Shown: positions 3,810 to 53,082 of the stretch, one piece after another
Position numbering within the stretch: the first letter of the stretch is position 1
How the letters are laid out: every line of letters begins with the position of its first letter
Assembly: GCA_016866975.1 (NCBI GenBank)
Contig: VGKP01000003.1
Coordinates: forward strand, 1 to 53,082
DNA: 53,082 bases
Direction: 5' to 3'
Source of the DNA: Candidatus Pacearchaeota archaeon
GTDB taxonomy: Archaea; Nanobdellota; Nanobdellia; Pacearchaeales; GW2011-AR1
Notes under the pieces: model-generated
Databases searched by the model: none
The model's input: only the letters and a program-made list of their open reading frames with translations
Told to the model about the DNA's origin: nothing
Program-made: the position numbers and the translations under genes

Positions 3810-4322
3810 ATGGGAATGGAAGAAATCGAGCGCGTCAAGAGCATCTTCCAAGAGCTCAATCTCAATCCTGAATACCGGGAACATGCGCCTGCAATCACTA
3901 GTGAAGAAGCTTCCCGTAATAGAGGAGATTTGCTGAAGCAAGGCATTAAATCTCTCCTGTTCACCAACGGCAAAGACTTCATCATCGTGAATCTTCCGGC
4001 AGATCAAAAAGTCGACACCAAAAAAGTCGAGCAAACGCTCAATTGGCAACGCTCAACTATGAGAATGGCAACACCTCAAGAAGTCATCGAAAAAACAGGT
4101 TGCGAGATTGGCGCAGTCCCTCCATTCGGCCACAAAACCCCTCTTCAAATCCTTGTAGACCTAGGAGTCTATGATAACAAAGAAAGCGCATTCAATATCG
4201 GTCTCCGCACGTATTCAGTAAAAATCTCTACGCATAAGATGAAAAATCTCTTTAGACATCTCAATGCGCTGGAAGGTGCATTTGCAAAATCATCACAAAA
4301 ACGATGCGCCACCTCGGATTGA
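3810..4322 (+). CDS. YbaK/ProXp aminoacyl-tRNA editing domain protein; last codons and stop supplied by the inserted hairpin element
   Basis: IKSLLF, GCEIGAVPPFGH and AFNIG motifs. TATA TTTATATA starts 29 nt upstream. Confidence 0.85.
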   Translation: MGMEEIERVKSIFQELNLNPEYREHAPAITSEEASRNRGDLLKQGIKSLLFTNGKDFIIVNLPADQKVDTKKVEQTLNWQRSTMRMATPQEVIEKTGCEIGAVPPFGHKTPLQILVDLGVYDNKESAFNIGLRTYSVKISTHKMKNLFRHLNALEGAFAKSSQKRCATSD

Positions 4323-4493
4323 AAACCGAGGTTTGTTGCAGTCGCTCGTTTTTGGAGATGCTCGGGAACCACCACACCTTGAAAGGTGTGGTTTTCATCG
4401 GTTCCCGACATAAGCACGATACACCACCTCGGATTGAAAACCGAGGTTTGTTGCAGTCGCTCTTGTCATCAAGGATGTAAATCCTTGACATAA
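4292..4493 (+). mobile_element. Hairpin element copy 1 (composite: A + B + partial A + minimal 26-bp hairpin)
   Basis: ATCA-caaaaacgatgcgccacctcgg...ggttcccGACATAA, then a second A arm and ATCAAGGATGTAAATCCTTGACATAA. Confidence 0.9.
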
Positions 4494-4499
4494 AATAAA

Positions 4500-5726
4500 T
4501 CAAACAACAACTTGAGCATCTCTATCAACATGTTTCCTCCAGCCTTGATTTGTTGGATCATATGAATTGATATAGCTTGAGATATAATTTGAAGGAATCA
4601 TCGCTTTGTGTCCTCTTCCTCTCTTGAAATTCACGTTTTTCCAGACATTGTTTCTGCTCTGGATTCTCGATAGTTCTTTAGCGCTCATGACAGAAATTCC
4701 AAGAACATATGCAATATCCTTGAAACTCAAGGAATTTTCTTTCCCTGCAAGCCTTAAAAGTGCTTCTTGCCTTCTTTCTTCCAAAGCCTGGCCGTTAAAA
4801 TTAAGCTTATTTCTGACTCTGTAAAGTTCTTCGCGTATTTTATACTGTTCAATATCATAATAGTCATAGAGAGATTGGAGCGAAACACATCCCTTGCCAT
4901 CGGCCTCAAAATCTCTTTGTGTTACGAGCCTCTTAATAGTGATCTCACCCATATTAAGGACGGAGACAAGTTCTTGATAAGGTATCCCTATTCTGCCCTT
5001 GGTATTCCAACTGACAAGTTGCTCTTCAAGCTTAAAAAGCTCATCCCAATCACGATGTTTAAGGCGGTTAAGTGCCTCTTGGGGCAGGATGTCGATGCGA
5101 TGCTCAAAGTGATAGGATGTAAACTGGCGTGGTTGTGATGCAGTGACAAGATTGATGAAAGAAGGATGAAATTTCTTAATATACCTATCGCTCCCATTGA
5201 GTTGGTAAAATAAAAAGGGATGTGGGAAGCAGTGATAAATGATCTCATCAGGATCCGAACATTTTAGAGCAGTATGCGTTGCGCTGATTGATGTGTGAAT
5301 ATGCGCTGCAAGATTGCGTGAAAGAGCACAGCTTTGGCGGCCCTTCATAGTAGCAGGAGAAAGGACATAGTACTGAGATGCATTTCCTTTGAGCTTAAAT
5401 CCTACAAACGTAGTGATGCACTTGCGCTCTAAAGTTGACATTATTTCAGCATCTTTTTGCATGCGCTCCCGAAGTAGCTCATGATCATCGAAGAGTTCAT
5501 GGAGCGCAGTTACAGATACTCGCGTATAGTGGTGCTCGTAAACACCTTCCCGCAACTTCTTAAAAGAATCTTTTATTTTTTTTCTAGCTCGCCTGATAGA
5601 AGTCTGTTCCTGGAACTTAAGAGAACGTAGTCGCTGTTGTAAACGCACATTCATGTCATTATACCCTACCATTAAAAAATTGACTATCGAAACTCTTATA
5701 AGCTTTTCGTACAGGCTCCACCGCAA
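4500..5726 (-). CDS. Hypothetical protein with C-terminal HTH-like segments (start uncertain, possibly 5656)
   Basis: 408 aa ORF containing IPYQELVSVLNMGEITIKRLV and LSFKDIAYVLGISVMSAKEL. Confidence 0.55.
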   Translation of the reverse strand: MRWSLYEKLIRVSIVNFLMVGYNDMNVRLQQRLRSLKFQEQTSIRRARKKIKDSFKKLREGVYEHHYTRVSVTALHELFDDHELLRERMQKDAEIMSTLERKCITTFVGFKLKGNASQYYVLSPATMKGRQSCALSRNLAAHIHTSISATHTALKCSDPDEIIYHCFPHPFLFYQLNGSDRYIKKFHPSFINLVTASQPRQFTSYHFEHRIDILPQEALNRLKHRDWDELFKLEEQLVSWNTKGRIGIPYQELVSVLNMGEITIKRLVTQRDFEADGKGCVSLQSLYDYYDIEQYKIREELYRVRNKLNFNGQALEERRQEALLRLAGKENSLSFKDIAYVLGISVMSAKELSRIQSRNNVWKNVNFKRGRGHKAMIPSNYISSYINSYDPTNQGWRKHVDRDAQVVV

Positions 5727-5768
5727 TTCTTTTAATCTACAATTCCCTCACTACAAAAAGAGACTATC

Positions 5769-6188
5769 ATGAAATACGAATTTGCCGAAGATATCCAACA
5801 GCGCATGTCGGAGATAGTGCAGACCTTGGGTATGCATCATATTGACTTACAGAGGGTAAAATGCTATCGTAGTAGTGGAAGCAGCACAAAAAGAACCATC
5901 GCGCGCTGCCATACCGTGGGTAAGCTTATGCAGAAAGCTATGGGTATGCCTGCATATTATGCAATAGAATTTCTGGAAAGATTTGAGAGAATGCAGAAAG
6001 ATGAGCAGGACAAGGTAATAATCCATGAGCTGATGCACATCCCTAAGACATTCGGCGGGGGTTTTAGACAGCACGATTTTGTATGCGACCAGAATGTAGA
6101 GATAATGCATGAAAAGTTTCTTGGTATGAAAAGATCCGGCACTGAACATAAGGTTCCTGAGAAAAAGCTCTTCCCATTTTGGAAATGA
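5769..6188 (+). CDS. Putative HExxH metallopeptidase
   Basis: VIIHELMHIP zinc-binding motif and RTIARCH; a small archaeal metallopeptidase-like family. Confidence 0.75.
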   Translation: MKYEFAEDIQQRMSEIVQTLGMHHIDLQRVKCYRSSGSSTKRTIARCHTVGKLMQKAMGMPAYYAIEFLERFERMQKDEQDKVIIHELMHIPKTFGGGFRQHDFVCDQNVEIMHEKFLGMKRSGTEHKVPEKKLFPFWK

Positions 6189-6538
6189 TTATCGACATAA
6201 CTATCTCAAAGAATAATAGAAAAATAAGCTTCCCCGTACATAGAGTGTCTATTCTGGGAAAGATAACCGGTCTTATGTTCCGCACCAGGAATACACGAAA
6301 CCTTCTCTTCGAATTTACCAGGCCAGTAAAATTATCAATACATTCCTGGTTCGTCTTTTTCCCTTTCCTTATAGTCTGGACAGACAAGAAAAACAATGTC
6401 ATCGGACAGAAAGTTGTCTTGCCGTTCACGACGGCAATTGCTCCACTAAGACCATTTTCAAAGGCCATAGAAGTGCCATTTTCACGACGAAATAAGGACA
6501 TCCTTGATTTCTTCGTCGACACAAAAAGATTTAAATAG
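6185..6538 (+). CDS. DUF192 family protein
   Basis: GLMFR, IHSWFVFFPFLIVWTD and IEVP motifs. Confidence 0.75.
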   Translation: MIIDITISKNNRKISFPVHRVSILGKITGLMFRTRNTRNLLFEFTRPVKLSIHSWFVFFPFLIVWTDKKNNVIGQKVVLPFTTAIAPLRPFSKAIEVPFSRRNKDILDFFVDTKRFK

Positions 6539-51662: not shown

Positions 51663-51704
51663 AAAGGAGTCGACATTCCCATACAAGCGCGTCACCAACT
51701 TTTT

Positions 51705-52130
51705 ATGGAGCTTATAATAAAAGAGAAAATTAGTGCAGACCACTTACTCTACGTTAGTCTGAAATATACAAAGACATGTGATGTCATAATAAACCTGCTT
51801 CTACGATGGAAAATAATGATAGAATTGGGAATGGATTATCTTGTAGAGAAGGCAAAGAAGCAGAAGAAATGGAAGCCAATTCCCAACGCGCCAAGGGCAA
51901 AGCTCATCCAGCTCAAGGAAGTATTTGCTAATAACAAGGAAATAAGTGATGCCCTTAAGCTTTATGAGCTATTTAGAGATATAGAGCAATTGGACAAGGT
52001 TAGGGAGAATGAGTTCAGGAAAGGAGTAAATCTTAAAGTCACATACAAAGGGCAAACTATAAATATTAACTTGGAAAAGTTGAAAGAATACGCTGCCACG
52101 TTAGAAAGATTTATAAGTGCCCTTAAATAA
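51705..52130 (+). CDS. Conserved hypothetical protein
   Basis: ADHLLYVSLKYTKTCDVI motif of an uncharacterised archaeal family (from recollection). Confidence 0.6.
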   Translation: MELIIKEKISADHLLYVSLKYTKTCDVIINLLLRWKIMIELGMDYLVEKAKKQKKWKPIPNAPRAKLIQLKEVFANNKEISDALKLYELFRDIEQLDKVRENEFRKGVNLKVTYKGQTININLEKLKEYAATLERFISALK

Positions 52131-52168
52131 CTTTGTTTGTTCCGACTCGAATTTCGGCGGAAAAAATC

Positions 52169-52921
52169 ATGGCTAAACTAATTACTATCACATCAGGTAA
52201 AGGCGGTGTTGGAAAGACCACAACTGCCATCAATCTTGGGGCTGCACTGAACGCCTTTGGAAAAGAGGTCATTGTCCTTGATGCCAATCTAACTACACCC
52301 AACATAGGACTCCACCTAGGCGCCCCCATAGTTCCTATAAGCCTTAATCATGTCCTTCTAGGAAAAGCAAAGATTGCTGACGCCCTTTATGAGCACGAAT
52401 CGGGTATGAAAATCATCCCTAGTTCTCTTTCAGTCAGGGAACTAAGAAGGTTAAATCATGGAAAATTGAAGGAAGTAGGCAAAAAATTAAGGAAGATGGC
52501 AGACTACATCATATATGATTCAGCCGCAGGATTGGGAGAGGAAGCCTTGGCAGCCATGGAATCAGGAGATGAGCTGATTATTGTAACCAATCCAGAAATA
52601 CCTGCAGTCACTGATGCCCTCAAGACCAGCAAGGTAGTTGAAGAGCTTGGAAAACAAGTCAGAGGAGTCATAATAACTCGTGTCAGAGGCCTTAAGACAG
52701 AGATGCCAATCACTAATGTCAAAGAAATGCTCGAATTGCCTATTCTTGGAGTCATTCCTGAAGATAAGAATATGCAATCAGCCCTTATCATGAAAGACGC
52801 CCTATTGCACACCCATCCAAGAAGCAAAGCTGCAAGAGCATATCGCCAGATAGCTGCTCGTATAATAGGCAACAATGCCTACAAAGAAGATTATACTTTG
52901 CTAGAAAGAATATTTGGATAA
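52169..52921 (+). CDS. minD: MinD-family ATPase
   Basis: SGKGGVGKTT, DANLTTPN, DSAAGLG and VTNPE motifs. Confidence 0.92.
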   Translation: MAKLITITSGKGGVGKTTTAINLGAALNAFGKEVIVLDANLTTPNIGLHLGAPIVPISLNHVLLGKAKIADALYEHESGMKIIPSSLSVRELRRLNHGKLKEVGKKLRKMADYIIYDSAAGLGEEALAAMESGDELIIVTNPEIPAVTDALKTSKVVEELGKQVRGVIITRVRGLKTEMPITNVKEMLELPILGVIPEDKNMQSALIMKDALLHTHPRSKAARAYRQIAARIIGNNAYKEDYTLLERIFG

Positions 52922-52972
52922 TTTTTAGCCCAAACCTAATTGCCGCATCATATTCTACTTTACAATTCGAAC

Positions 52973-53082
52973 ATCAAAAAAACGATGCGCCACTGCGGCT
53001 TAAAAGCCGCAGTTTGATGCAGGCGCTCGTTTTTTGGATGCTCAAGGAACAACTCCAGCTTAAAAGCTGGAGTTTTAGTCAA
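52973..53082 (+). mobile_element. Hairpin element copy 12 (A' + C), truncated by the window end
   Basis: Matches copies 5 and 9 up to the last base of the window. Confidence 0.92.

Follow-up and report, generated by a model that had tools for sequence, protein, structure and literature searches.

Orientation of a modular hairpin element in a pacearchaeotal genome follows strand composition and points to a probable single-strand transposon of IS200/IS605 type

The insertion sequences (ISs) IS608 and ISDra2 are excised from and inserted into the lagging-strand template, and their cleavage sites are recognised via guide sequences located 5′ of the foot of a hairpin (PMC5027513, PMC3201880). An orientation bias tied to replication is an established hallmark of such single-strand (HUH/Y1) transposition, with the experimental work done on bacterial elements (PMC5027513). 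Here we describe a gene-less hairpin element of 120–123 nt that recurs along a 53,082-nt stretch of archaeal DNA (the window), which is contig C3 of an 805-kb, 31-contig metagenome-assembled genome (MAG; Candidatus Pacearchaeota, 89% complete). The genome codes MCM, which marks it as archaeal, and also gyrase A and B; the host is a freshwater DPANN archaeon with a genome of <1 Mb. Below, this genome is G000, related genomes are G001–G016 and C-numbers are contigs. An earlier note on the window had seen all copies on one strand, cited the lagging-strand preference of IS608 and ISDra2 (in agreement with the two papers cited first) and proposed replication-coupled insertion of single-stranded DNA. 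Element orientation indeed follows strand composition and not gene direction, and the element is probably a new family of IS200/IS605-like non-autonomous transposons.

The copies found in the window comprise 11 that are full or composite, one of which is truncated at the contig end, and 3 that are partial; every one of them lies on the plus strand, as the earlier note had reported for its own set with the decayed copy at 1279 included; weak minus-strand matches are only palindromic echoes of the same copies. The chance of this pattern under random orientation is 2^-11 to 2^-13, the former being the earlier estimate. Loci were collected by repeat finding, alignment and an nhmmer profile, with which the whole assembly was searched, yielding 66 loci in the 31 contigs. 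Of 43 pairs of neighbouring copies, 37 share one orientation (binomial p = 1.6e-6), and within contigs the copies lie 12 of 12 on plus (C3), 7 of 7 on minus (C2), 4 of 4 on minus (C7 and C9, each) and 5 of 6 on minus (C8). The sign of the orientation switches between contigs and, since the orientation of a contig in an assembly is arbitrary, every contig constitutes an independent trial. Neither flanking gene's direction bears on orientation: relative to the element, 19 contexts are tandem-minus, 12 convergent, 11 tandem-plus and 9 divergent genome-wide, near the expectation from gene-strand frequencies. The argument that the earlier note had raised against terminators or RNA elements, which would follow gene direction, therefore extends to the whole genome.

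The orientation was compared with replication within this 31-contig MAG, replication direction being taken from skew alone, measured as third-codon-position GC skew (GC3) of long open reading frames (ORFs) with the coding-strand effect removed. GC3 skew is +0.043 in genes co-oriented with the nearest element and +0.149 in genes opposite to it (Mann-Whitney p = 1.6e-12); thus a transcription-independent strand asymmetry runs with the elements. The strand on which the earlier note had read the element (from ATCA to GACAT) is the C-rich strand at most loci. Locus by locus (±10 kb), 54 of 64 loci are concordant, while an estimator free of the genome mean (half the plus-gene minus minus-gene skew difference) put the concordant loci at 51 of 62 and the concordant contigs at 16 of 19 (p = 0.004); where |r|>0.05, concordance is 40 of 45 loci. 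Coding bases slightly favour the G-rich strand (53.6%), as expected if that strand is the leading strand.

Orientation flips of the predicted kind were found once next to a minimum and once near a maximum of the cumulative skew. On C4, which carries the sole orc1/cdc6 gene (C4:19337-20431), the cumulative residual skew has its minimum at ~6 kb and is strongly positive from ~8 to 40 kb; copies lie on plus at 8973 and on minus at 33905 and 39730, so that the flip brackets orc1/cdc6 and adjoins the skew minimum. On C1, the cumulative skew reaches its maximum at ~85-90 kb, with copies on minus at 38.7 and 39.2 kb and on plus at 91.7, 116.3 and 118.3 kb, the exceptions being those at 46.3 kb (plus) and 102.3 kb (minus). 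The right end of C1 overlaps C15, where both copies are on plus and skew is negative. As far as a 31-contig MAG allows, the mapping against cumulative skew and orc1/cdc6 that the earlier note had called for thus comes out in its favour, and its proposal of replication-coupled single-stranded insertion is supported by the GC3 concordance, by the flips on C4 and C1 and by the anatomy of the element.

On the strand first read, the element starts with ATCA, ends with GACAT and is built of two long bulged hairpins, modules A and B. Module A consists of AAAAACGA, GCGCC, an inner hairpin, an 8-nt bulge, GGCGC and TCGTTTTT, and module B of TCAAGGAAC, an inner hairpin, an 8-nt bulge and GTTCCTTGA. Folded as DNA, both strands reach −42 to −44 kcal/mol (z about −10). 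The module variants (A1, A2 and A3; B1 and B2) are found in every combination and are set apart by compensatory changes; in a comparison of five genomes from the genus, pairing persists through double changes at 19 of 34 predicted pairs, and the unpaired motifs ATCA, GTTTG, TTGGATGCTC and GACAT are invariant while the stems covary. No terminal inverted repeats are present, as the termini ATCAAAAAAACG and ATGTCAAGGAAC (the latter being the reverse complement of the 3′ end) are not convincing as such. T-runs follow the hairpins on both strands, and pairs of G-U type are equally common on the two strands. Small hairpin modules, each preceded by GATGC, occur in mosaic, and the modules within one copy are all in direct orientation. 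The element is stop-free, so ORFs can read on through its copies. Rfam 15 gave no match to it at the gathering score over the window, nor any at E≤1 for two copies.

Several peculiarities were seen in individual copies. In five (G000 C1:39227, C1:46343, C6:34046, C7:12884 and C1:38737), a hairpin loop is exactly inverted on an unchanged stem (TTAAAA to TTTTAA; TTGAAA to TTTCAA), with both loops inverted in two of them, a sign that loops may often flip via the stem, or templates switch, at the DNA level. Two kinds of double-hairpin modules of 50-51 nt are nested in the element at window 37448-37670 and at G000 C2:40333, C13:7453, C8:1 and C24:4548. They sit at fixed unpaired spots, one within the hairpin A loop (TTAAA|A) and one within the T-run that separates A from B (TTT|TTT), with no duplication at either spot and with differing targets. 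A hammerhead-like stretch (CTGATGAG) in a nested insert was dropped as a candidate, having no Rfam support. Read as its complement, the element forms an open frame that starts with ATG (MSRNLTKTPAFKLELFLEHPKNERLHQTAAFKPQWRIVFLI), and in three cases (G000 C8:6389-9742, C19:1-4670 and C22:3-620) this frame continues in register into a large downstream ORF, which then starts with a hydrophobic segment; such fusions may be artefacts of ORF calling or genuine N-terminal extensions.

More than 10 copies in G000 are 100% identical, and because so many are, the element has multiplied recently. One copy, at C8:20764, interrupts the ORF of a DDE transposase and is the single copy truly within a gene; eight close homologues lack exactly 40 residues at this place. 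No paralogue of the interrupted gene was found in G000, and the empty site came from the protein-database homologues, its DNA being GCCTTTTTATGTATCG in four independent contigs, while the filled site reads GCCTTTTTATGT[CAAGG...CTTTTGATGT]ATCGG. By this comparison the insertion is 120 nt long, its junction is ambiguous by 4 nt (ATGT), and a clear duplication is absent. No empty sites came from two public contigs with the genes of the window, which are 100% identical with the elements included, and empty intergenic sites in congeners were not alignable, the genomes being only ~70% identical. The flanks are asymmetric: after GACAT, the 63 right ends show A (76%), A (92%), N, A (59%) and A (75%) in succession, while the ten positions that precede ATCA hardly depart from background. 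With the complementary strand as reference, the element lies 3′ of TTNTT-AT and ends with TTTTGAT. Conservation of the flank on one side only matches the one-sided target rule of IS200/IS605.

The genome also encodes Y1 transposases. An intact IS200/IS605 TnpA lies at C10:122-589 (NF033573, 77.8 bits), with HLH as its HUH motif and YVRNQ as its Y..Q motif; it scores 31.2 bits against the REP-type model NF047646, thus failing the cut-off of 80. A second IS200 type is split over contig ends. The first 20 codons of its transposase (MEENELNKSAHKVFRIKYHF) occupy 3..62 on the minus strand and run off the left edge of the window, their coding strand being G-rich and opposite to all elements. Its left-end hairpin, CCGTGG-TCTTG-CCACGG (111..127, minus), is the sister of the right-end hairpin CCACGG-TCTTG-CCGTGG, which is found with the C-terminal part at C6:1-153 and C12:26760-26912. 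In all 4 contigs that hold both, with 17 element copies, the tnpA coding strand is opposite to the strand on which every element was first read, which fits the complement as the active ('top') strand. The left- and right-end hairpins of the Y1 ISs are unlike the element except for short likenesses (GGAAAC followed by a hairpin; ...ATGTCAT).

The left end of the C10-type IS joins two contigs via 127-nt overlaps (G000 C10:1-127, the right end of C2 and the left end of C21). It exists in two versions that share the left-end hairpin and then differ in a segment of 17-22 nt, which in the C21 version is the reverse complement of the element 5′ end (ATCAAAAAAACGATGCGCCACT); in one assembly variant, part of a module A is found upstream of tnpA. 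The C21 version may be a recombinant of IS end and element. An origin of the element by simple deletion, from the C10-type IS or from the contig-end IS200 type, was considered and found unsupported, as the ends differ and no element lies by the tnpA homologues.

Taken together, the anatomy (hairpins at both ends, no terminal inverted repeats, no clear duplication, a one-sided target and a Y1 enzyme in the genome) fits transposition of the IS200/IS605 type. We consider it reasonably probable that the element represents a new family of non-autonomous single-strand transposons, comparable to palindrome-associated transposable elements (PATEs), which insert into the lagging-strand template. The top strand would be the complement of the strand first read, with the order 5′-[target TTNTT-AT]|GTCAAGGAAC-(bulge)-hairpin B'-...GAGCATCCAAA...-(bulge ..ATCAA)-hairpin A'-GTGGCGCATCGTTTTTTTGAT|-3'. 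The G-rich strand carries it at 51-54 of 62-64 loci and in 16 of 19 contigs, polarity being judged from skew, from the weak gene-strand bias (53.6%) and from where orc1/cdc6 lies on C4; the G-rich strand would be the lagging-strand template, as it is in bacteria and in those archaea studied so far. The strand first read was rejected as the active one: it is C-rich, its 5′ flank is nearly random whereas its 3′ flank is conserved, and the four tnpA genes are on the other strand. A Y1 transposase would act in trans as the putative helper. When the complementary strand is considered, each 8-nt bulge precedes its inner hairpin on the 5′ side, the position at which IS608 has its guide sequences, and the bulges may serve as guides for the cleavage sites: the terminal TTGAT is the complement of the A bulge (..ATCAA), and the T-rich target that of the B bulge (..TAAAA), although such a pairing is suggestive only. 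Excision would be expected to produce a circle with the junction of right and left ends ...TTTTTGAT|GTCAAGG..., that is, ...CGTTTTTTTGAT|GTCAAGGAAC....

Several observations weigh against this interpretation. The ends of the C10-type IS, as determined from five genomes, differ from those of the element (left end, AAGAAATC plus hairpin; right end, hairpin plus AGGATGTCAY), and nhmmer found no element within 1.5 kb of the C10-type tnpA homologues in related genera. A Y1 transposase was not detected in 8 of the 16 related genomes with elements, all of them incomplete MAGs, and three genomes that are Y1-less in this search (G005, G008 and G016) each have at least 27 element matches. Between variants A1 and A2, the pairing of bulge and cleavage site does not covary cleanly in register. 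The single empty site, with its ATGT ambiguity, leaves room for a duplication of 2–4 bp. The replication direction behind the orientation test is inferred from skew, and the skew minimum on C4 is ~13 kb from orc1/cdc6, so that the origin is not pinned. Finally, the effect in relatives has the same direction and is clearly weaker than in G000.

The last point derives from a skew test over 907 kb in the ten largest contigs of G008 (where skew is very strong) plus regions of G016, G005 and G002. Concordant loci number 12 of 19 in G008, 11 of 17 in G016, 12 of 19 in G005 and 6 of 7 in G002, or 41 of 62 (66%), and at the level of regions 20 of 29 are concordant (p = 0.06). The near-identity of the G000 copies marks them as recent, while the relatives show the weaker concordance. 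Of the 16 genomes of the genus, 13 have the family, as do 2 genomes outside the genus (one of the same family and one of the same order), and public records with the same element family are labelled Candidatus Pacearchaeota or Nanoarchaeota. DNA searches returned no matches in G004, G007 and G012 and 27-29 in G005, G008 and G016; copies in related genomes are likewise co-oriented within contigs. A pattern scan of genome contigs gave ~12 single bacterial matches, disregarded given the ~7 estimated by chance for the degenerate pattern. Element identity between genomes (G001-G016 against G000) is 80-89%, compared with an average of ~70% for alignable DNA, which reflects either constraint or exchange between species.

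A more far-reaching and unlikely reading is that the copies are self-sustaining modular hairpin cassettes and not a by-product of resident IS200 copies, forming an archaeal counterpart of bacterial repetitive extragenic palindromes and their REP-associated tyrosine transposases (REP/RAYT). Under such a scheme, a Y1 or other HUH enzyme would process the cassettes on the lagging-strand template, and they would be retained across the genus under sequence constraint; this would cover the nested 50-nt modules, the flipping loops and the free reshuffling of A and B modules. Bacterial REP/RAYT pairs differ from the present case in that the best Y1 protein here scores as IS200 (77.8 bits) and fails the REP-type model, and no elements flank its homologues. 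RAYT classes are unreported in archaea (PMC6006769).

Alternatively, the element could be a MITE (miniature inverted-repeat transposable element) moved by another enzyme, such as a DDE transposase, a tyrosine recombinase or another HUH protein, with the bias arising via some other coupling to the replisome, for example through the sliding clamp. The mismatch between element ends and Y1 IS ends speaks for it, as do the persistence of elements in genomes with no detectable Y1 transposase and the ATGT ambiguity, which permits a short AT duplication; moreover, several IS families are reported to be biased in orientation relative to replication (cited in PMC5027513; PMC3971601). However, the lack of terminal inverted repeats, the single conserved flank in place of the symmetric signatures and duplications of double-strand cut-and-paste, and the one-sided bulges of 7-8 nt in the end hairpins, which are the anatomy of a single-strand HUH substrate, render this explanation unlikely.

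A further possibility, which we regard as rather improbable, is that selection maintains one orientation because the element has a replication-direction-dependent role in the host, in the manner of polar chromosome sequences or of domesticated REP and bacterial interspersed mosaic elements (REP/BIME) that provide binding sites or structural signals. The 80-89% identity over a ~70% background indicates that the sequence is constrained, the unpaired motifs are invariant while stems covary, and the mosaic of GATGC-preceded small hairpins recalls REP/BIME. Yet this conservation is equally explained by recognition by a transposase, and copy number ranges widely between congeners, from none to 27-29. 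Copies also land in genes, including a transposase gene, and many are 100% identical, as after a recent burst. The weaker bias in relatives would be unexpected for a selected polar signal, and the genome has no RAYT (31 bits with the REP-type model, cut-off 80).

An RNA-level element (a structured RNA gene, terminator or attenuator whose transcription is co-directional with replication) is very improbable, for although the structure is very stable with compensatory changes, T-runs follow the hairpins on both strands and the loops TTAAAA/TTTTAA resemble archaeal TATA boxes, orientation is independent of either neighbouring gene, no conserved promoter lies upstream (the flanks being unrelated), no Rfam family matches even at E≤1, G-U-type pairs are equal on the two strands, loops are flipped in several copies and copies lie within coding sequence. 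A terminator or gene-linked RNA was rejected on the independence from flanking genes and the missing Rfam match.

The copies in the window, all on the plus strand, display the module combinations in the following contexts. Elements of type A1+B1 lie at 4292..4411 (120 nt, ATCA to GACAT; 134 bits) and 40104..40223, both between convergent genes, and at 29734..29853 between tandem minus-strand genes (141 bits). Between convergent genes as well is 33559..33678, a hybrid A with B1. Those at 46636..46757 (A1+B2), 47352..47473 (A2+B2) and 48542..48661 (A2+B1) are all located between tandem plus-strand genes, and 50404..50526 is a further A1+B2. The A2+B2 copy at 34014..34135 is identical to at least 10 other G000 copies. 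At 37448..37670 lies the composite copy, which has a 51-nt double-hairpin insert in the hairpin A loop and a 50-nt insert in the A-B T-run, with no duplication. The copy at 52973..53082 is cut by the contig end, where the assembly breaks in the repeat and overlaps contig C24 by 109 nt; many G000 contigs likewise terminate within an element copy, as the repeat breaks the assembly. Partial copies are 4412..4491, adjoining the copy at 4292 and made of module A and then a small TCAAGGAT...ATCCTTGACAT hairpin; 12470..12562, a small hairpin module plus B2 that ends with GACAT; and the decayed 1279..1358, a small hairpin module plus a B-like end (…GTTCCTTGATATCA). The earlier note had placed copies between convergent, tandem and divergent genes and inside genes. 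The convergent (4) and tandem (4-5 minus, 3 plus) contexts do occur in the window, and all four genome-wide, whereas divergent ones do not occur in the window (0) and the copies 'inside genes' there are ORFs reading through the stop-free element.

Three features outside the elements were also recorded. A full-length group I intron match (Rfam RF00028, 81.5 bits) occupies window 31340-31612 on the minus strand, in an ORF-free stretch between a KH-domain gene (31630-32121) and a MnmA-like tRNA thiolase gene (29864-30955); no host gene was identified for this match, and group I introns are uncommon in archaea. At 25877-26073, directly 3′ of tRNA-Gly(CCC) (25818-25888), are 3 tandem 80-nt units that start with the 3′ end of that tRNA. 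On the largest contig of G008, a simple ORF call produced one open frame of ~36 kb (~12,000 codons; C1:1-36500, minus), which may be the gene of a giant surface protein.

The occurrence of the orientation hallmark in a DPANN archaeon gives indirect evidence that lagging-strand templates are targeted in archaea as they are in bacteria. As the polarity of the element agrees with GC3 skew, it can help to orient the contigs of fragmented MAGs into replichores and to locate the origin and regions of fork convergence in organisms that resist cultivation. To our knowledge, replication has never been mapped in uncultured DPANN archaea, and if the cassettes were indeed a counterpart of REP/RAYT, their polarity would mark replication direction, origin and fork convergence there. 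Hairpins of such abundance should not be annotated as terminators or small RNAs.

Compared with known systems, the element shares with Rickettsia palindromic elements (RPEs), which are palindromic, stop-free, 100-150 nt in length and able to sit in frame within protein genes, the stop-free sequence and the in-frame addition of 40 amino acids in the DDE transposase; we know of no replication-linked orientation and no associated Y1 transposase for RPEs. MITEs with terminal inverted repeats, which depend on DDE enzymes, differ in that the present element has no such repeats, its flanks are asymmetrically conserved and its empty site shows no clear duplication. With REP/BIME (REPIN) sequences it has in common highly repeated, mostly intergenic hairpins, a short motif at the 5′ foot (here GATGC), a mosaic structure and a relation to Y1 HUH enzymes, but its modules are direct and not inverted, and nearly all copies per contig are direct too. 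It is closest to IS608, ISDra2 and PATEs in its subterminal end hairpins with no terminal inverted repeats, its short AT-rich target with no evident duplication, its strong replication-relative bias, the Y1 HUH enzyme in the genome and the unpaired bases 5′ of the hairpin foot as possible guides. Unlike in these, each end is a bulged hairpin within a hairpin of ~55 nt and not a short imperfect palindrome, the ends match neither Y1-bearing IS type of the same genome, A1, A2 and A3 recombine freely with B1 and B2, 50-nt double-hairpin inserts are nested within, and a DPANN archaeon serves as host. That orientation obeys such a rule was known before for IS200/IS605 (PMC5027513); what is new is the archaeal host together with the elaborate modular hairpin ends.

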